The translations under genes were made by a program, and so were the position numbers. Below the pieces are notes generated by a model. It did no database searches, was not told where the DNA came from, and saw nothing but the letters and a program-made list of their open reading frames with translations. Below are positions 1 through 5,677 of a stretch of DNA of 5,677 nucleotides, in pieces. Within the stretch, counting starts at the first letter, position 1. Each line of letters opens with the position of its first letter. The stretch is from a virus (Duplodnaviria > Heunggongvirae > Uroviricota > Caudoviricetes): positions 1-5,677 of the IMG/VR virus record IMGVR_UViG_2778260996_000009. One strand, written 5' to 3'.

Positions 1-375
1 GCACCACCCCGTCAGTAGCTGAACAGGAGGGACAGCTGATAGAAACAGAAGCCACTGGAGCACCTCAAAAACACCATCATACACTAAATCAGTAAGTTGG
101 CAGCATCACCTATCACCAGAGTTTAATGTGTGATTTTTTATTTATCGTCGAACCTGGATTGTTTATCATTGGCCTTAACAAAGTTAACGGCTAATAAGAT
201 TATTTCCATCACTTCGTGAGAGCTTCATGCCTTGAGAGGATCTCAATTTTCTTTTGCAATGAGACAGGCGCTTCCTGTTGTTATGGTATAGTACCCCGCT
301 ATTGAGCCTCCTGAATAGTGATGCTGAATAACATAACCCCATGATATATCGATAAAATAATCTCTACATTTGAAA

Positions 376-498
376 ATGCACGGTAATTCTGAAATGCAAA
401 AAATCAACCAAACCAGCGCAATGCCTGAAAAAACTGACGTTCACTGGAGTGGTCGGTTTAGCGTTGCACCAATGCTCGATAGGATGTACCGTTTTTGA
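376..498 (+). pseudogene. dusA: Truncated 5' fragment of tRNA-dihydrouridine synthase A, interrupted by element insertion; first ~35 codons DusA-like, then divergent tail and TGA stop
   Basis: Translation from ATG 376 (in frame with ATG 421) gives MHGNSEMQKINQTSAMPEKTDVHWSGRFSVAPMLD followed by RMYRF and a stop. The RFSVAPMLD segment matches the conserved N-terminal motif of DusA-type enzymes, which normally continue with WTDRH.RYF. The frame instead diverges after codon D at ~480 and stops at 496-498. No convincing Shine-Dalgarno lies upstream of 376, so the true start could be 376 or a later in-frame ATG. Identity rests on my recall of the DusA N-terminus, not on a search. Confidence 0.55.
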
Positions 499-500
499 AA
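470..500. other. Inferred host/element junction (att core region) inside the dusA 5' end
   Basis: This is where the DusA-like reading frame stops resembling DusA (after ...APMLD, ~480). Elements carrying dusA-specific integrases are known to insert in the 5' end of dusA. The exact core boundaries cannot be set without the other junction or an uninterrupted dusA. Confidence 0.35.
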
Positions 501-555
501 AACAACTAGTTATACACTTTGTGGGAGCCTATTGGGAACCTGAAGTTTTGCTCTT

Positions 556-575
556 TCTATTCATATCTATTCATA
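556..575. repeat. Perfect tandem direct repeat tctattcata x2
   Basis: Read directly: tctattcata at 556-565 and again at 566-575, in the non-coding region between the inferred att junction and the first element gene. Possible protein-binding site (arm-type, IHF or operator); function unknown. Confidence 0.5.
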
Positions 576-600
576 AAGCACCATTTGCTGCCTTATCTGA

Positions 601-629
601 TTGACCAAAAACAACCGCGGTTATAGACT
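601..629 (+). promoter_or_regulatory. Candidate sigma70 promoter for the 683..1673 operon
   Basis: TTGACC at 601-606 (5/6 match to the -35 consensus), a 17-bp spacer, then TAGACT at 624-629 (4/6 match to the -10 consensus), about 55 bp upstream of the ATG at 683. A short inverted repeat ctaag-N7-cttag (643-659) follows. Sequence-only prediction. Confidence 0.3.
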
Positions 630-682
630 TTGCTCCAAATAGCTAAGGCTATTGCTTAGTAAGTAAAACAGTTGAGGTTGCC

Positions 683-1222
683 ATGAATCCGTTTAACGCC
701 ATTACTTTTGCTGCATTGTGCGGGCCTCTGGCTTGTCCTGCTGCTATGGCGCAGGAGTTCATCATCCAGCCAGCCCCTGTGATTGCTAAACCTTTTGAGT
801 ACTCTCCTTCTGTTGAGGAATTCTCACGCAAAATGGAAGAGGGTAAGGAGATCTTGCAAAAGTTAACAATTGCAGCAGATGACTACTATATCTGTTTGAT
901 TGATCTTAATAGCCAAGATGCTCGCGAGTTTGTTTCCAAAAACGGGACAGATACGACAGAGGCATGCGAAATGTTCCTGCGTGCTTTTGAAGAAGAAGTG
1001 AAGCGTACAATTGAATCGCCTCTGCCTGAATTTATCAGGTCAGAACTGAAGGTTTACTGGCGTCATATTGCTAAAGCTCGCTCATCTGTCACTCGCCTTA
1101 ACAATTACATAAAGAGCATATTTAAAGAAACTGTTACTTTTAGCGGGCGCGCGGATCTTGCTGAAATTGCAGCACTAGCTAGTCACACATCAAATAAGCT
1201 AAAATCGATGCAATTTCACTAA
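683..1222 (+). CDS. Hypothetical protein, 179 aa, with hydrophobic N-terminal segment (possible signal peptide); candidate partner of the downstream YafO-like toxin
   Basis: ORF with a Shine-Dalgarno GAGGT at 673-677, 5 nt before the ATG at 683. The N-terminus MNPFNAITFAALCGPLACPAAMA-QEF is hydrophobic with an AxA-like cleavage motif but has no basic n-region, so export is uncertain. I recognise no family in it. It lies 16 nt upstream of the YafO-like gene on the same strand. Confidence 0.65.
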   Translation: MNPFNAITFAALCGPLACPAAMAQEFIIQPAPVIAKPFEYSPSVEEFSRKMEEGKEILQKLTIAADDYYICLIDLNSQDAREFVSKNGTDTTEACEMFLRAFEEEVKRTIESPLPEFIRSELKVYWRHIAKARSSVTRLNNYIKSIFKETVTFSGRADLAEIAALASHTSNKLKSMQFH

Positions 1223-1238
1223 CCGATAGCGGACGACC

Positions 1239-1673
1239 ATGCATCTAGAAGTCTCTATTAATCCAGAAACTAGAGCTGAATTTTTTGATGAAGTTTTTCT
1301 CAAATTCCCGGAGCTAGAGTCTTCTATCATTGATGATTTCAAGAGATACAAAGCAACCGGTGAGCTTCCGCATTATTTCGGTAGGGACGTTGCGTATACT
1401 CAGCCTTATGGTGCTTTTCGGGCTGGGTTGATGCATATCCATCTTTGTCTACCGCCAAACAAGTTTCCCGAGAAACTTCCACAACCGGATAGGGTCTGCA
1501 AGAAAGGTGATCCTGATAATGATGCTTGTCTTGTGTATGTCCAAGGTGAGCTTTATGAGAATAAATATTCACTCATTGCTATTATGTATCCCGATGCACA
1601 TGAAAAAGCAAGAAAACATGATGTGATGAGCTATCTGGCGCGAATTGCCCAGAATTATAAAGATGAAAACTAA
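1239..1673 (+). CDS. YafO-family toxin-like protein (ribosome-dependent mRNA interferase family), 144 aa
   Basis: The translation contains FGRDVAYT, MHIHLCLPPNKFP, CLVYVQGELYE, LIAIMYPDAHEKARKHD and YLARIA. These align with the E. coli YafO segments FGRDALYD, AHIHLANENNPFP, HLVYCQGAFDE, LIAILKPEPHKLARDN and KMAEA as I recall them. Weak SD (GGA) upstream of the ATG at 1239. The TAA stop at 1671-1673 is followed directly by a terminator hairpin. Confidence 0.65.
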   Translation: MHLEVSINPETRAEFFDEVFLKFPELESSIIDDFKRYKATGELPHYFGRDVAYTQPYGAFRAGLMHIHLCLPPNKFPEKLPQPDRVCKKGDPDNDACLVYVQGELYENKYSLIAIMYPDAHEKARKHDVMSYLARIAQNYKDEN

Positions 1674-1693
1674 CCCGCCGAAGCGGGTTTTTT
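1673..1693. terminator. Rho-independent terminator hairpin shared by convergent transcription units
   Basis: Stem ACCCGC (1673-1678), loop CGAA (1679-1682), stem GCGGGT (1683-1688), followed by a run of six T (1688-1693) on the plus strand. It sits between the plus-strand stop (1671-1673) and the minus-strand stop (1700-1702). The minus-strand side has a weaker U-tract. Confidence 0.7.
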
Positions 1694-1699
1694 GTGAGA

Positions 1700-1972
1700 T
1701 TAGTTATTTATTTTCCTATTTGTTCTTACCCTCTCCCATTCAATTCTGCCTTCTTCACGCCGTTTATCTATATATTCAGCAAGATCCTGAATGTTGATGC
1801 AGCGCTTTGCTTTCTGTGATGTACCAACACGATAAGTCGGGATCGGCAACTGGCATGCATTTGCTTTCGCTTCTGCTGTGTTAGGGCTCATACCGAAATA
1901 CTTTTGGCATACAGCTGACAGCTCAATGTTTGGGGTATTGAATTCAGCCATCAGTAAAAACAAGGTGTTCAT
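1700..1972 (-). CDS. PrtN-family DNA-binding protein (excisionase-like / pyocin-activator-like), ~90 aa
   Basis: From ATG 1972 the protein reads MNTLFLLMAEFNTP...LPIPTYRVGTSQKAKRCINIQDLAEYIDKRREEG, which resembles the N-terminus and core of PrtN-family proteins (MNT.FLLMA ... DLA.Y.D.RR). The ATG at 1972 has GGAG 6 nt upstream. The ORF track begins at GTG 1999 without an SD, so 1972 is preferred. Confidence 0.7.
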   Translation of the reverse strand: MNTLFLLMAEFNTPNIELSAVCQKYFGMSPNTAEAKANACQLPIPTYRVGTSQKAKRCINIQDLAEYIDKRREEGRIEWERVRTNRKINN

Positions 1973-2008
1973 AATTTTCTCCATCAAAACCGGCTGCACC
2001 CGGGAAAA

Positions 2009-2581
2009 TCATAATTCTGTGCTGGTGGCAGGAATTAATTTCTGCCAGATAGCGGAAACATATTTTGCCTGATGACGGGCATCAGCCAGGGCGTTGTGCC
2101 GTTCGCCATCGAAAGGCATGTCCATTTTGGGGTCGAATCCGATGGAACGCCCAAGCGTAACGATCGTGCGTACATCGTGGTCATTCCAGTACGCCCACGG
2201 GCAGATTTGTCCTGCTCGCTCATAAGCTCCACGTAAAATTACGTTGTCGAAGGTGGCCCCGTTACCCCAGACTTTTAAATATTTCGTATTGTCTGCGTGC
2301 CGGTTAATGAAATGGTTTAGTTCTGAGAGAGCATCGCTGATCGACAAAGTATCATCAATACAGATTGCAGCTCGCGCTTCAGGGCTTTGTTTCAACCACC
2401 ACAGGATGGTATCGCCGTCAGGTGTAGCTCCTTGCTTCATAGCACTGTCCAGGCTGACAACCGCATAGAATTCTTGTCCGATGTCTCCGGTTTCTGGAGT
2501 GAAGAACACCGCGCCAATAGAAACGATCGGCGCATCCTTATTTTTCCCCATCGTCTCAAGGTCGATCATTAAGTTGTTCAT
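2009..2581 (-). CDS. DEDDh-type 3'-5' exonuclease (DnaQ-like), ~190 aa
   Basis: The three exonuclease motifs are visible: MIDLETMG (Exo I, D-x-E), VWGNGATFDNVIL (Exo II) and ERHNALADARHQAKY (Exo III with His). An SD AGGAGGTG lies 5 nt upstream of the ATG at 2581. The GTG at 2584 used by the ORF track is too close to the SD. The ATG overlaps the stop of the upstream DUF551 gene (TGATG). Confidence 0.8.
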   Translation of the reverse strand: MNNLMIDLETMGKNKDAPIVSIGAVFFTPETGDIGQEFYAVVSLDSAMKQGATPDGDTILWWLKQSPEARAAICIDDTLSISDALSELNHFINRHADNTKYLKVWGNGATFDNVILRGAYERAGQICPWAYWNDHDVRTIVTLGRSIGFDPKMDMPFDGERHNALADARHQAKYVSAIWQKLIPATSTEL

Positions 2582-3159
2582 CACTTCACCTCCTGCGGCG
2601 GTTCCGGTAGCGGCATCCAGTGAGTTGCTTGCTCAATACCATTACCCGACTTAATCGTTGCATCTCCGCGCCGAAAAGTGCTTCCGGTATAGCGTGCGGA
2701 GCATATTAGCGGTTCAACCAGAGAGCTATCGAAATTCACCGAAATGAGCACGTTCTGATTCTTCTCAGGCATTCGCTCACTACAGCTTATCCAACTATCC
2801 GGAGTTACCGGAGAGTTGGTTGACGTTTCCGAGGTTTCCCGAAAATTATTGGTTGACGAATCCTTATTTTCCCGAAAGTTTCCAGCCTGAAGCATGGCGG
2901 CGCGGTGACACCAGATAATCCAGCCAAGCGCCATATCCCATGCCATGTATTCTCTATCGCCATTTTTCGCCCTGCGGCGATCTACAGATTCCCCGAAACG
3001 CTTCTCCATAAATAATTCATAGGCTGCTCGTTCATCCGATACTGCTGCCAGTGATGCCAGTGCAATTCGTGCCAGTTCCATTTGTTCGCCACGGGTAAGT
3101 CCGTTTCCAAGCGGATTTTTAATGAACAATTCAATACGTTCTTTGGTAATAGTGGTCAT
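2581..3159 (-). CDS. Phage protein with C-terminal DUF551-like domain, 192 aa, with internal 11-aa tandem repeat linker
   Basis: The C-terminus ...NVLISVNF...CSARYTGSTF...EQATHWMPLPEPP matches the DUF551 signature (W.PLPEPP) common in enterobacterial prophage early regions. An SD AAGGAG lies 6 nt upstream of the ATG at 3159. The N-terminal ~110 aa are unassigned. Confidence 0.7.
   Translation of the reverse strand: MTTITKERIELFIKNPLGNGLTRGEQMELARIALASLAAVSDERAAYELFMEKRFGESVDRRRAKNGDREYMAWDMALGWIIWCHRAAMLQAGNFRENKDSSTNNFRETSETSTNSPVTPDSWISCSERMPEKNQNVLISVNFDSSLVEPLICSARYTGSTFRRGDATIKSGNGIEQATHWMPLPEPPQEVK
2816..2881. repeat. Imperfect 33-bp tandem repeat (2 units, ~25/33 identical) inside the DUF551 CDS
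   Basis: Unit 1 (2816-2848) ttggttgacgtttccgaggtttcccgaaaatta and unit 2 (2849-2881) ttggttgacgaatccttattttcccgaaagttt. On the coding (minus) strand they encode NFRENKDSSTN / NFRETSETSTN. Confidence 0.6.
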
Positions 3160-3169
3160 GTGTTACTCC

Positions 3170-3433
3170 TTAACCCGCAGTGCTTTCAACTGACGAGGGG
3201 AACAAAATCTTTTCTTTAAATCCGGCATTCATATCATGGACAGCAACACACCAATCCATTGACGAACGATCATCAAGAGCCTCCATGATTTCATCCATGC
3301 GGCGTAGGTCATACAGGTAAATGCTTTTATCGCCAATGGTGTAAAAACCAATTTTTTTCGGTGACGGGCAGCGATCAAGAACGTTCTGTAATTCGCTCAA
3401 CCATGCCTGTTCCTTTTTTGTCAAAGTTGCCAT
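3170..3433 (-). CDS. Hypothetical phage early protein, 87 aa
   Basis: ORF with a strong SD AAGGAG 6 nt upstream of the ATG at 3433. It starts 1 nt after the stop of the upstream Ead-like gene. No recognisable motif. Confidence 0.6.
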   Translation of the reverse strand: MATLTKKEQAWLSELQNVLDRCPSPKKIGFYTIGDKSIYLYDLRRMDEIMEALDDRSSMDWCVAVHDMNAGFKEKILFPSSVESTAG

Positions 3434-3434
3434 A

Positions 3435-3833
3435 TCACTCTCCTTTGATGCGAATGCCAGCGACGCGTAGTGCGTGTTCTAAGTCAATCAGGCAAAGCCA
3501 ACTGCCATTTTCTTTAGGTATCATGACATGTCGCTTATCAGCATTTATTGGGTGCCCATATCGAAGGTCGTAGCGAGTCGGTAATTGAACTTCCCTCGCT
3601 TCCAGTTCTGTAATGCGTTTGTTTTTAGCTTCTAGTTCATCCAGCAGCGCCAGCACGGTTTCTGGTCCGGTCAGAAATTTGAAGGCGTTGAGCACATCAA
3701 TATCCACACCGTAATCTTTAAGTTCCTGTTCACTTAACAAATCATCAGCAGCTGGCAACATTAACAGGCGTTCCATTGCTTGAATTGCACGTTCCGCCGC
3801 CTCACGCAGTGCCTGATAGTCAATCTTGCTCAC
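3435..3833 (-). CDS. Ead/Ea22-like family protein, 132 aa, GTG start
   Basis: The N-terminus MSKIDYQALREAAERAIQ resembles the conserved N-terminal segment (..QALREAAEKA..) of Ead/Ea22-like proteins from lambdoid prophage early-left regions. The start codon is GTG (rc of cac 3831-3833), preceded by a strong SD AAGGAGG with a 6-nt spacer, and overlaps the upstream stop (GTGA). Confidence 0.65.
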   Translation of the reverse strand: MSKIDYQALREAAERAIQAMERLLMLPAADDLLSEQELKDYGVDIDVLNAFKFLTGPETVLALLDELEAKNKRITELEAREVQLPTRYDLRYGHPINADKRHVMIPKENGSWLCLIDLEHALRVAGIRIKGE

Positions 3834-4069
3834 TGGTTGCCTCCTTTACGGATCTGCGCAGCGATGCACGAAAAAAAAGACTCTCGCGTATGACTGTTAA
3901 GAGCTGGCGCGAACGCCGCGTTAAGAACGGCAGCATCACAGCCGTCATCGATATAGAGCGCAATTTTTTTCTCCAGGCGTGCTTTGGCTTCCTGCAACTG
4001 CATACCCCGGCACGCACGCGGGATATACTCAGCAATTTGAGCGATAGATTTTTCGTTCTGTTTAAACAT
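3830..4069 (-). CDS. Hypothetical small phage protein, 79 aa
   Basis: ORF with an SD GAGGTG 4 nt upstream of the ATG at 4069. It overlaps the upstream gene by 8 nt and the downstream GTG start by 4 nt (translational coupling). No recognised family. Confidence 0.55.
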   Translation of the reverse strand: MFKQNEKSIAQIAEYIPRACRGMQLQEAKARLEKKIALYIDDGCDAAVLNAAFAPALNSHTRESFFSCIAAQIRKGGNQ

Positions 4070-4265
4070 GCTTCACCTCGATAGGCTTGATGGTGTCGAT
4101 CAGTAGTCGGCGGCGCGTATTTTCTGCAAAGTGGCGGCGTCCGGTTTCTTTGTGGTAAAACTCGTTTTTGCCGACGACCCACATCCGCTCTGTCTGGTGA
4201 AGTTTTTTTACCTGCGGGCCGTCTTTGGTGATCACAATGCCGGTATGGGTTTTTACGATTGTCAT
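4062..4265 (-). CDS. Hypothetical small basic phage protein, 67 aa
   Basis: ORF with an SD AGAGGTGG immediately upstream of the ATG at 4265. Its start overlaps the stop of the PAPS-reductase-like gene (ATGA). No recognised family. Confidence 0.55.
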   Translation of the reverse strand: MTIVKTHTGIVITKDGPQVKKLHQTERMWVVGKNEFYHKETGRRHFAENTRRRLLIDTIKPIEVKHV

Positions 4266-5140
4266 GCCACCACCTCTTCGAATTTCAATTCCAATTGATC
4301 ACCCCAGATTTCACATGACTCTGAACACGAGCCGGTATCGAATCGCCTGGCTTGCACCATCGCCTGATACAAATTTCTGTAGTCGCTGTCGGCATACATT
4401 CTGGCAATCCCGTCAAGGCTCAGATGACCACGGTACATAACGTCTTTATTTGTCTTTCGGTGACCATCCCGGACGTGTTTACCTGTAACCAGCTCATTAA
4501 AAACTCGCATCAGACCAGGTTCGTCTTTACATGCAAGCCCCAGCTTTTGCGTGGACTTTTTGATGCAGAAAACACAGTTCCCGAGGTGCTCCGGGATTTG
4601 CAAATCAAAAGGTTGTTTATGCCACCACCGGATAACATCCGACTTATCAAAATCAGATAGCTCGGCAAGATACCGGACGCCCGATTTCGGTTTCAGCCTA
4701 CGAGGTTCGTCTGCACGAATACCCAGCCATGTGATGTAATTCCCTCGTCCGAAATGGTCATCGCAGTATTTTGTGAAGGGGGTGAGTTTTAATCTGTCAG
4801 TGCAGAACGCGCCGCCGATGTATGGCGTGCCATATTTTTTTACCATGTCCATAAACGGTTTAAGCACCGGCATTCGTGTCTGAATATCCTTTGGTTCCCA
4901 TTCCGTATAACCATTTGGCTGCCCAAGCTCTGGATTTATATCGACCTGCAACACAGTTAGCGGTATGCCCCAGAACTTCACAACCTCCCGAATAAAGCGG
5001 TATGTCAGCGGATGTTCGCAACCGGTATCCATAAAGATGTAGCAGACGTTATTTCCAGTCTTTCTTTGTTCTTCCATCAGGTGAACAAGATATGCAGATG
5101 TTCTCCCGCCAGAAAAACTAACTACATGAGTTATGCACAT
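4262..5140 (-). CDS. Phosphoadenosine-phosphosulfate (PAPS) reductase-like PP-loop family protein, 292 aa
   Basis: The N-terminal VVSFSGGRTS is the PP-loop motif (SGGxDS-type) of the PAPS reductase / ATP-sulfurylase-like superfamily. The length is typical of phage-encoded PAPS-reductase-like proteins. The start overlaps the end of the HD gene by 10 nt. A Cys-rich C-terminus (CSESCEIWG) is present. Confidence 0.8.
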   Translation of the reverse strand: MCITHVVSFSGGRTSAYLVHLMEEQRKTGNNVCYIFMDTGCEHPLTYRFIREVVKFWGIPLTVLQVDINPELGQPNGYTEWEPKDIQTRMPVLKPFMDMVKKYGTPYIGGAFCTDRLKLTPFTKYCDDHFGRGNYITWLGIRADEPRRLKPKSGVRYLAELSDFDKSDVIRWWHKQPFDLQIPEHLGNCVFCIKKSTQKLGLACKDEPGLMRVFNELVTGKHVRDGHRKTNKDVMYRGHLSLDGIARMYADSDYRNLYQAMVQARRFDTGSCSESCEIWGDQLELKFEEVVA

Positions 5141-5667
5141 TTGCGTAATTCCGATAACTCGTTAAAACGTTCCATAAACATCCCGTAGGCATGGCCTGGT
5201 GACAGTGGAATAACTTTGAACATCTCTGTTGCCGGGATGCCTTCCAGTACAGGCCAGAAAGAGCCATCATCAAGCCCGAGATCGCGGCGTTCGGTTGCCA
5301 GCATAATGAGATCGGCATATTTCACTGGCGTGCTCATAACAGGAGGTAACCCGTATTTCTCACGGATTACGGCGTCTATTTTTTCTTCCATCCGTTTATA
5401 GTCAGGAAGAAGTCGTTTCAGTGGCGCGGGGATGTCCTGGCAATATGCTTCTGTTGCATCATGCATTAACGCTTCGAAAGCAAACTCCTGCGGTACCAGC
5501 TGGCTGCAAAGCACCGCATGTTGGGCGACGCTGTAGAAGTGTGAAAGATGCCCTGCAAAGCGACAGATATTTGAGAGGGAAACTGCGATATCGTTAATCA
5601 CGATGTCGTCTTTATTTATCTTGTCATAATAAAAATGCTTCCCGGAAAAAGTTTTAATAAATGACAT
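5131..5667 (-). CDS. HD-domain phosphohydrolase (YfbR/YfdR-like 5'-deoxynucleotidase family), 178 aa
   Basis: Contains the H...HD...D metal-binding pattern (VAQHAV ... EALMHDATEAY ... D). An SD GGAG lies 6 nt upstream of the ATG at 5667. The size and sequence resemble the prophage HD proteins of E. coli (YfdR-like), from memory. Confidence 0.8.
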   Translation of the reverse strand: MSFIKTFSGKHFYYDKINKDDIVINDIAVSLSNICRFAGHLSHFYSVAQHAVLCSQLVPQEFAFEALMHDATEAYCQDIPAPLKRLLPDYKRMEEKIDAVIREKYGLPPVMSTPVKYADLIMLATERRDLGLDDGSFWPVLEGIPATEMFKVIPLSPGHAYGMFMERFNELSELRKCA

Positions 5668-5677
5668 TTTGTTCTCC

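Follow-up and report, generated by a model that had tools for sequence, protein, structure and literature searches.

The stretch of viral DNA analysed here (the window: 5,677 nucleotides, positions 1 to 5,677 of IMG/VR record IMGVR_UViG_2778260996_000009) forms the left arm of a lambdoid E. coli prophage inserted in dusA, and it carries on its minus strand two open reading frames (ORFs) that overlap by 10 nt (Table 1). The upstream ORF encodes YfdR, an HD-domain phosphohydrolase, and the downstream ORF encodes a PP-loop protein of the phosphoadenosine phosphosulfate (PAPS) reductase superfamily that is closely related to NinC of phage lambda. A sequence-only reading of the window, in which the strand of the two ORFs was left unstated, had reported both ORFs, their overlap and their family assignments, all of which are confirmed here, the family assignments by the HD signature and fold of the first product and by the Pfam match of the second. 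Both ORFs are genuine genes, and chance ORFs can be discounted: each product matches a PHROG family and has ~5,000 database homologs, and the ratio of nonsynonymous to synonymous substitution rates (dN/dS), computed against diverged alleles, is 0.03–0.14 for both genes. The sequence-only reading had gone on to propose that the pair forms a functional module. The explanation favored here, with a probability of roughly 0.7, is instead that yfdR and the ninC-like gene are two independent accessory genes joined by mosaic recombination, with the NinC-like protein as a DNA-directed anti-restriction enzyme and YfdR as a separate function.

A NinC-like protein with a PP-loop and six invariant cysteines

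Over its full length, the PP-loop protein shares 78% identity with lambda NinC, and it matches PHROG family phrog_424 (1.2e-93 over residues 5–291). The lambda NinC family corresponds to phrog_424 and phrog_33262, and the similarity of the window protein to this family extends over the full length, C-terminal cysteine motifs included. Motif conservation was assessed in two alignments of the NinC family, comprising 30–31 sequences at 52–80% identity. The PP-loop is of the SGGxDS type, with threonine in place of the canonical aspartate, and its residues S10, G11, G12, R13 and S15 are invariant, as are D38, T39 and G40 of the DTG motif and six cysteines (C113, C126, C189, C192, C272 and C276). 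These six cysteines would be compatible with a [4Fe-4S] cluster. The structural model of the protein presents a Rossmann-like α/β core that matches solved members of the PP-loop superfamily, and residues 267–292, modeled with a predicted local distance difference test (pLDDT) score below 50, are predicted to form a flexible tail bearing the CSESC motif.

Lambda NinC (Nin 290) shares the PP-loop, the six cysteines and the C-terminal CSESCE of the window protein, but the two genes differ in their setting: in lambda, ninC belongs to the rightward nin region, where it follows ninB and overlaps it by 4 nt, whereas the window gene lies in the leftward early region after yfdR. A further full-length ninC-like ORF is found in the Shiga toxin phage PA2 (L223, NC_028449.1, positions 3501–4379), where a different gene and then an intergenic stretch of ~170 nt precede it, with no overlap. 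The RefSeq product for this locus, the PAPS-reductase gp24, has 271 residues and starts at an internal methionine, and as annotated it loses the invariant PP-loop; the full ORF encodes 292 residues and begins MSTHHVVSFSGGRTS, which makes the RefSeq start a likely misannotation.

Among the defense system profiles of PADLOC, the best match of the NinC-like protein is SspD (1.4e-15), followed by BrxP (1e-4) and DndC (8e-4), and the SspD alignment spans residues 5–150 of the protein and positions 2–123 of the 277 in the profile. NinC shares with SspD, DndC and BrxP a PP-loop ATP pyrophosphatase fold and a richness in cysteines. The differences are that the match is confined to the N-terminal half of NinC, and that NinC is encoded by a phage gene, outside any host defense island and without system partners. 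No cysteine desulfurase, DndD/SspC ATPase or DndE/SspB was found among the neighboring genes in the window or in the relatives examined, where the neighbors of NinC family genes are instead phage replication, recombination and nin genes. Of the comparisons put forward in the sequence-only reading, the one with DndC gave a distant profile match and no DndC-type operon partners. A QueC-like 7-deazaguanine pathway found no support, with no close sequence or fold similarity between QueC and the NinC-like protein, and a weak match to a PDB chain labeled 'PptA' (21fy_C, E 0.76) disappeared in the profile search.

Association with DNA methyltransferases and an anti-Dnd precedent

NinC domains are recurrently joined to DNA methyltransferases. 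Among the 150 best matches to the NinC-like protein, six of the eight long representatives (at least 400 residues) are Dam-NinC, NinC-Dam or NinC-D12 fusions, and both domain orders occur. NinC-Dam fusions are encoded at three of the loci examined (L118, L122 and L124), and in two others (L219 and L220) ninC and an MT-A70 methylase gene share 4 nt, while a C5 methylase gene lies near ninC in a further two (L221 and L222). An unusual arrangement is seen in Mixta tenebrionis (L116, positions 2402–5698), where a single frame of 1,099 residues encodes a triple fusion of a C5 cytosine DNA methylase, NinC and a D12 N6-adenine methylase.

Residues 3–282 of the NinC-like protein are 55% identical to the PAPS domain of p0018 from Vibrio phage 44E38.1, a protein labeled 'Dam methyltransferase with PAPS reductase domain'. 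The two proteins share the GNCVFCIKK and DTGSCSESCE motifs across the NinC domain, and p0018 is likewise a phage early-region gene, adjoining recombination genes. They differ in that p0018 bears a C-terminal Dam domain, whereas the window protein stands alone. The transfer of p0018 together with p0019 into a sister phage led to infection of a Dnd-protected host (Piel et al., 2022, preprint 10.1101/2021.05.05.442762), an anti-Dnd effect whose demonstration is confined to the swap of both genes in Vibrio and does not extend to E. coli. The preprint makes no mention of NinC (10.1101/2021.05.05.442762). PAPS reductases in Aca-regulated anti-defense loci were also recorded by a 2026 survey, in which they are called DndC/SspD homologs with reference to Piel et al. 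Lambda NinC and its prophage relatives hence belong to the same family as a Vibrio PAPS domain implicated in Dnd escape, and the link between NinC, the Vibrio precedent and the methyltransferases yields a sharpened and cheaply testable hypothesis for the function of lambda ninC, a loose end of several decades.

YfdR, a probably separate HD phosphohydrolase

Of the 178 residues in the HD-domain protein of the window, 175 (98%) are the same in YfdR of CPS-53 (KpLE1), a cryptic prophage of E. coli K-12; the two proteins are equally long and differ by the substitutions K151N, S156A and E170D. It matches PHROG family phrog_318 (4e-110), and its gene is labeled 'yfdR: 5'-deoxynucleotidase' in RefSeq genomes. 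The HD gene of the pair is therefore not an uncharacterized one; the sequence-only reading had called the substrates of such early-region enzymes largely uncharacterized. The residues of the HD signature (H50, H69-D70 and D119, plus D78) are conserved in at least 97% of cases among 97 YfdR-family sequences, and the AlphaFold2 model (pLDDT 89) displays an all-helical HD fold, for which the top Foldseek match is the uncharacterized HD protein Atu1052 (2gz4; template modeling score, TM, 0.74; E 5e-10). OxsA, HDDC2 and YfbR match the same fold at TM ~0.45, with non-significant E-values.

YfbR, with which the sequence-only reading had suggested a comparison, resembles YfdR in being a small all-helical HD phosphohydrolase that RefSeq names 5'-deoxynucleotidase, but the two are only distantly related. 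YfdR was rejected as a YfbR ortholog on three counts: it scores 24.3 bits against the cutoff of 25.9 of the Pfam YfbR-like model (PF12917) and 19.9 against 122 for the NCBIfam YfbR equivalog, and its Foldseek comparison with the 2par structure gives an E-value of 1.2 at TM ~0.44. Since the YfbR models fall below threshold and Atu1052 is the best fold match, YfdR is assigned, on sequence and model comparison, to an HD phosphohydrolase subfamily of its own, Atu1052-like and distinct from the YfbR orthologs.

K-12 YfdR is a weak deoxynucleoside monophosphate phosphatase with a nucleotide affinity far below that of YfbR, and the purified protein binds DnaA via Phe46 of DnaA domain I (PMC4776307). 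Multicopy yfdQ and yfdR together with either yfdS or yfdT inhibit initiation at oriC, and yfd gene deletion is without phenotype (PMC4776307). The window YfdR most likely acts separately from the NinC-like protein, as a phosphohydrolase of low nucleotide affinity that also binds DnaA. The window and K-12 YfdR proteins have the same HD signature, and their genes have the same 3' end with an embedded downstream start codon. They differ in context: K-12 has yfdQ upstream and yfdS-yfdT downstream, jointly needed for the DnaA-related phenotype (PMC4776307), whereas the best-matching annotated prophage, used here as the reference (L001), has no adjacent yfdQ and carries a ninC-like gene downstream of yfdR. 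Since no annotated yfdQ is present in the L001 prophage region shown, the K-12 overexpression phenotype may not apply to the window prophage.

The yfdR/ninC-like junction and the linkage of the two genes

The ATG of the ninC-like gene sits seven bases before the TAA of yfdR and has no Shine-Dalgarno sequence, whereas GGAG-type sites are found at most other genes of the operon, whose remaining junctions overlap by 4, 8, 4 and 4 nt. In K-12, yfdR overlaps the unrelated yfdS by an identical 10-nt arrangement (L142, positions 2999–3008), and the window and K-12 sequences stay near-identical as far as CGCAAATG(T/C)GCAT(A/G)A and become unrelated directly beyond it. The homology of other prophages to the window ends at ~5133, just past the yfdR stop codon. 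Because the K-12 yfdR-yfdS junction matches and homology breaks at this point, the embedded ATG can be assigned to the boundary of the yfdR module. As read from these sequence comparisons, the overlap is a built-in feature of the 3' end of yfdR, with an ATG that serves whichever gene recombines in downstream, and it represents a mosaic recombination boundary. Translation of the ninC-like gene here probably depends on that of yfdR, as a by-product of the joint, so the translational coupling proposed in the sequence-only reading is plausible, but the overlap on which it was founded is not special to this pair and gives no indication of a shared pathway. More generally, the start codon embedded in the 3' end of yfdR illustrates that a mosaic joint in a lambdoid phage can couple the translation of two genes in the absence of any functional partnership.

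The linkage of the two genes was surveyed in 5,426 complete E. coli genomes and in 50,697 GenBank phage records. The yfdR gene is present in 2,971 of the E. coli genomes (3,885 copies) and the ninC-like gene in 549 (592 copies), against 283 that contain the joined yfdR/ninC-like junction, so that the paired share is ~7% of yfdR copies and ~48% of ninC-like copies. Among the ninC-like copies, 74 of 592 are on plasmid records, with listed examples of ~95–110 kb (e.g., NZ_CP031917.1 and NZ_CP098912.1), and these plasmids may be phage-plasmids. Of the GenBank phages, 49 records carry yfdR and 61 carry a ninC-like gene or lambda ninC; the two sets are disjoint, and the joined pair occurs in none of these 110 records. 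In IMG/VR, 63 of 80 loci from close relatives are paired, all with the same overlap, and NinC alleles of ~93–94% identity are found at every one of the 17 unpaired loci, while the paired alleles are of ~94–100% identity. Because pairing in IMG/VR follows one NinC allele lineage, it is taken as a single evolutionary event, consistent with shared descent.

Alignment of viral contigs yielded only near-identical alleles, and the neighborhoods of divergent NinC genes were drawn from a species-level genome collection and from contigs encoding relatives. A YfdR-family gene lies within 4 kb in one of 59 species-level loci with NinC relatives (32–75% identity), at a distance of 1.5 kb and non-adjacent. 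No adjacent HD gene was found in 35 diverse species-level NinC loci, and a Pfam scan of their 132 nearest-neighbor ORFs revealed no recurrent HD family; the families it did reveal include SSB, NinG, YqaJ, RecT, Q, integrase, DUF3268 and Dam. The most frequent immediate neighbor of the NinC family is the zinc-finger-containing DUF3268 (8 of 132 ORFs, loci L094–L141). Co-occurrence of HD and PP-loop genes across independent lineages was thus not found, and the lack of linkage among phages, which the sequence-only reading had named as an outcome that would refute its proposal, is largely borne out. Both genes belong to already catalogued families, their arrangement is annotated in 283 RefSeq genomes, and the new module envisaged in the sequence-only reading is not upheld.

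Proposed role of the NinC-like protein and alternative explanations

The sequence motifs and fold neighbors of the NinC-like protein, the methyltransferase fusions of its family and the Vibrio precedent of Dnd escape suggest that it is most likely a DNA-directed counter-defense enzyme employing sulfur chemistry. The proposal of an anti-defense or DNA-modification function, originally made for the pair, hence fits the NinC-like gene, on the strength of its SspD profile match, the fusions and the precedent. In the mechanism that we propose, yfdR and the ninC-like gene would be two independently evolving genes, joined through mosaic recombination at a boundary between genes and lying in the leftward early part of a lambdoid prophage that is integrated in dusA, and the incoming ninC-like gene would have made use of the ATG in the 3' end of yfdR, which probably ties its translation to that of yfdR. 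The NinC-like protein would bind ATP at its PP-loop and adenylate its substrate, as its motifs and fold neighbors suggest, and sulfur would be transferred through a cysteine persulfide or through Fe-S chemistry, the CxxC motif and C113/C126 being candidates for holding the cluster and the flexible CSESC tail for shuttling the sulfur. The fusion partners and the single genetic precedent point to DNA as the likely substrate and to restriction evasion as the likely purpose: either the phage DNA would be marked, or phosphorothioate-based (Dnd/Ssp-type) immunity would be disturbed, which could amount to an anti-Dnd/Ssp role in E. coli.

Several observations weigh against this explanation. The similarity to SspD is limited to the N-terminal PP-loop half of the NinC-like protein (residues 5–150), and the fusion or adjacency of methyltransferases, though recurrent, is a minority feature (6 of the 35 diverse loci, and 6 among the 150 best representatives). 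NinC lacks the partners on which known phosphorothioation depends, DndD/DndE or SspB/SspC, and lambda DNA is not, to our knowledge, reported to contain phosphorothioate. The pair is stably kept, overlap included, by all close alleles and by 283 genomes, which is compatible with a joint benefit of the two genes but does not require one. The Vibrio swap brought in two genes and lost two methylase genes, and its anti-Dnd effect is not attributable to the PAPS domain alone (10.1101/2021.05.05.442762). Lastly, lambda ninC is dispensable (PMC10695390), and no direct biochemical or genetic characterization of NinC was found in the literature consulted.

A bolder extension of the same idea, which we regard as possible but speculative, is that the NinC family, lambda NinC included, consists of autonomous single-polypeptide DNA modifiers that would use ATP and sulfur from host IscS to place a sulfur mark without DndD/E or SspB/C. 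This mark might be a phosphorothioate or some thio-modification not described so far; it would often be targeted by a fused or adjacent methyltransferase or cooperate with one, and it would leave Dnd, Ssp, BREX type 4 or other restriction systems blind. Coupling at the window junction would then tie synthesis of the NinC-like protein to that of YfdR, acting on nucleotides and DnaA.

It is unlikely that the NinC-like enzyme modifies RNA, for example by tRNA thiolation in the manner of TtuA, NcsA, TtcA or ThiI, or a small-molecule cofactor, and thereby tunes translation or metabolism. The invariant cysteines, CxxC included, would suit such an enzyme, since they recall the TtuA/TtcA type, but all the fusion partners found are DNA methyltransferases, no RNA-binding domain (THUMP or PUA) was detected, the closest defense profile is that of SspD, the genetic precedent is one of Dnd evasion and the neighbors of the family are DNA replication and recombination genes.

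Decidedly unlikely is a dedicated, stoichiometric two-enzyme module of YfdR and the NinC-like protein that jointly modifies nucleotides or DNA, in which, for example, the PP-loop enzyme would build or activate a modified nucleotide and the HD enzyme would trim or clear (deoxy)nucleoside monophosphate by-products or competing canonical nucleotides. The coupling expected from the overlap and from the missing Shine-Dalgarno sequence, the persistence of the junction in E. coli and IMG/VR and the purifying selection on both genes would all accord with a module of this kind. They are outweighed by the identical overlap between yfdR and its unrelated neighbor yfdS in K-12, by the unpaired share in E. 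coli (~93% of yfdR copies, ~52% of ninC-like ones) and by the absence of the pair from the GenBank phage records. Distant NinC relatives show no HD adjacency, no HD fusions were found, functional-looking NinC occurs alone in the PA2, lambda and Vibrio phage contexts, and the pairing that does exist, following one allele lineage, counts as one evolutionary event.

The idea that the PP-loop gene encodes a true PAPS or adenosine phosphosulfate (APS) reductase, a CysH-like auxiliary metabolic gene boosting host sulfate assimilation, is very improbable in spite of the labels it carries (Pfam PAPS_reduct; PHROG 'phosphoadenosine phosphosulfate reductase', category 'moron, auxiliary metabolic gene') and of its top PDB matches by sequence and fold, which are CysH and APS reductases, because the Pfam hit (37 bits) is restricted to residues 5–72, the structural matches cover only the N-terminal nucleotide-binding part (TM 0.38–0.48, ~20% identity), the canonical SGGRTS loop, as opposed to SSSFGIQ in CysH, points to an ATP pyrophosphatase chemistry of the DndC and SspD kind, the repeated joining of the family to DNA methyltransferases would make no sense for sulfate assimilation, and E. 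coli already has cysH. CysH identity, a comparison also raised in the sequence-only reading, was rejected as well at the level of the equivalog model (NCBIfam PRK02090, 20.2 bits against a cutoff of 154, with only residues 5–100 aligned) and of the C-terminal motif, which is CSESCE and not ECGLH. Caution is hence advisable over the widespread habit in viromics of counting the NinC family as 'cysH/PAPS reductase' auxiliary genes of sulfur metabolism; the literature consulted contained no direct account of PAPS-reductase genes of phages being mis-assigned in this way.

Prophage setting and neighboring genes

The minus strand of the window encodes, besides yfdR and the ninC-like gene, Ead/Ea22, DUF551, Rv2179c-like 3'-5' exonuclease and PrtN/Xis-like products. 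In L001, yfdR is the first ORF downstream of a cI-like repressor gene and is co-oriented with it; for this reason, and by analogy with the lambda pL operon, the assignment of these genes to an early leftward operon is a plausible one by position (the sequence-only reading spoke of an early operon). Rfam and tRNA scans of the window returned no matches.

Table 1. Positions of genes, motifs and other features in the 5,677-nt window.
Feature	Positions	Strand	Remarks
yfdR (HD)	5131–5667	minus	178-residue ORF
H50 of HD signature	5518–5520	minus	
H69-D70 of HD catalytic signature	5458–5463	minus	coordinates checked
D78 of HD signature	5434–5436	minus	
D119 of HD signature	5311–5313	minus	
10-nt overlap ATGTGCATAA (coding strand)	5131–5140	minus	ninC-like start codon within last yfdR codons
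ninC-like gene (PP-loop)	4262–5140	minus	292-residue ORF, PAPS-reductase superfamily
PP-loop SFSGGRTS, residues 8–15	5096–5119	minus	coordinates checked
DTG motif, residues 38–40	5021–5029	minus	
C113	4802–4804	minus	invariant cysteine
C126	4763–4765	minus	invariant cysteine
CxxC (C189, C192) in GNCxFCxKK	4565–4576	minus	invariant
C-terminal CSESC (C272, C276)	4313–4327	minus	invariant in two alignments
Gene for 192-residue protein, C-terminal DUF551 (YfdS-like) domain	2581–3159	minus	same operon
Rv2179c-like 3'-5' exoribonuclease-family gene	2009–2584	minus	match at 1.3e-75, same operon
YafO-family type II toxin gene	1239–1673	plus	Pfam 1.9e-21
Gene for 179-residue protein	683–1222	plus	signal-peptide-like N-terminus, no Pfam match; precedes YafO-family gene
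ORF for DusA N-terminus (MHGNSEMQKINQTSAMPEKTDVHWSGRFSVAPMLD…), tRNA-dihydrouridine synthase	~370–498	plus	truncated dusA likewise annotated in L001

Three features are found at the prophage end: the YafO-family toxin gene on the plus strand, a fragment of dusA and an end resembling that of IS1. No recognizable YafN antitoxin lies beside the toxin gene in the window, and this gene and the one that precedes it look like cargo at the prophage end. Positions 1–110 resemble the terminal inverted repeat and first bases of the insertion sequence IS1 in reverse orientation (…CAGTAAGTTGGCAGCATCACC). Matches to the left end of the window number 86,298 across 5,396 E. coli genomes, as would fit IS1, and the best prophage matches to the window all begin at position 111. 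Given the IS1-like letters, the number of matching places and the start of the prophage matches, IS1 appears to abut the prophage end in the source genome. The DUF551 domain, encoded separately from NinC in the window operon, is fused to a NinC domain in another protein (P0023).

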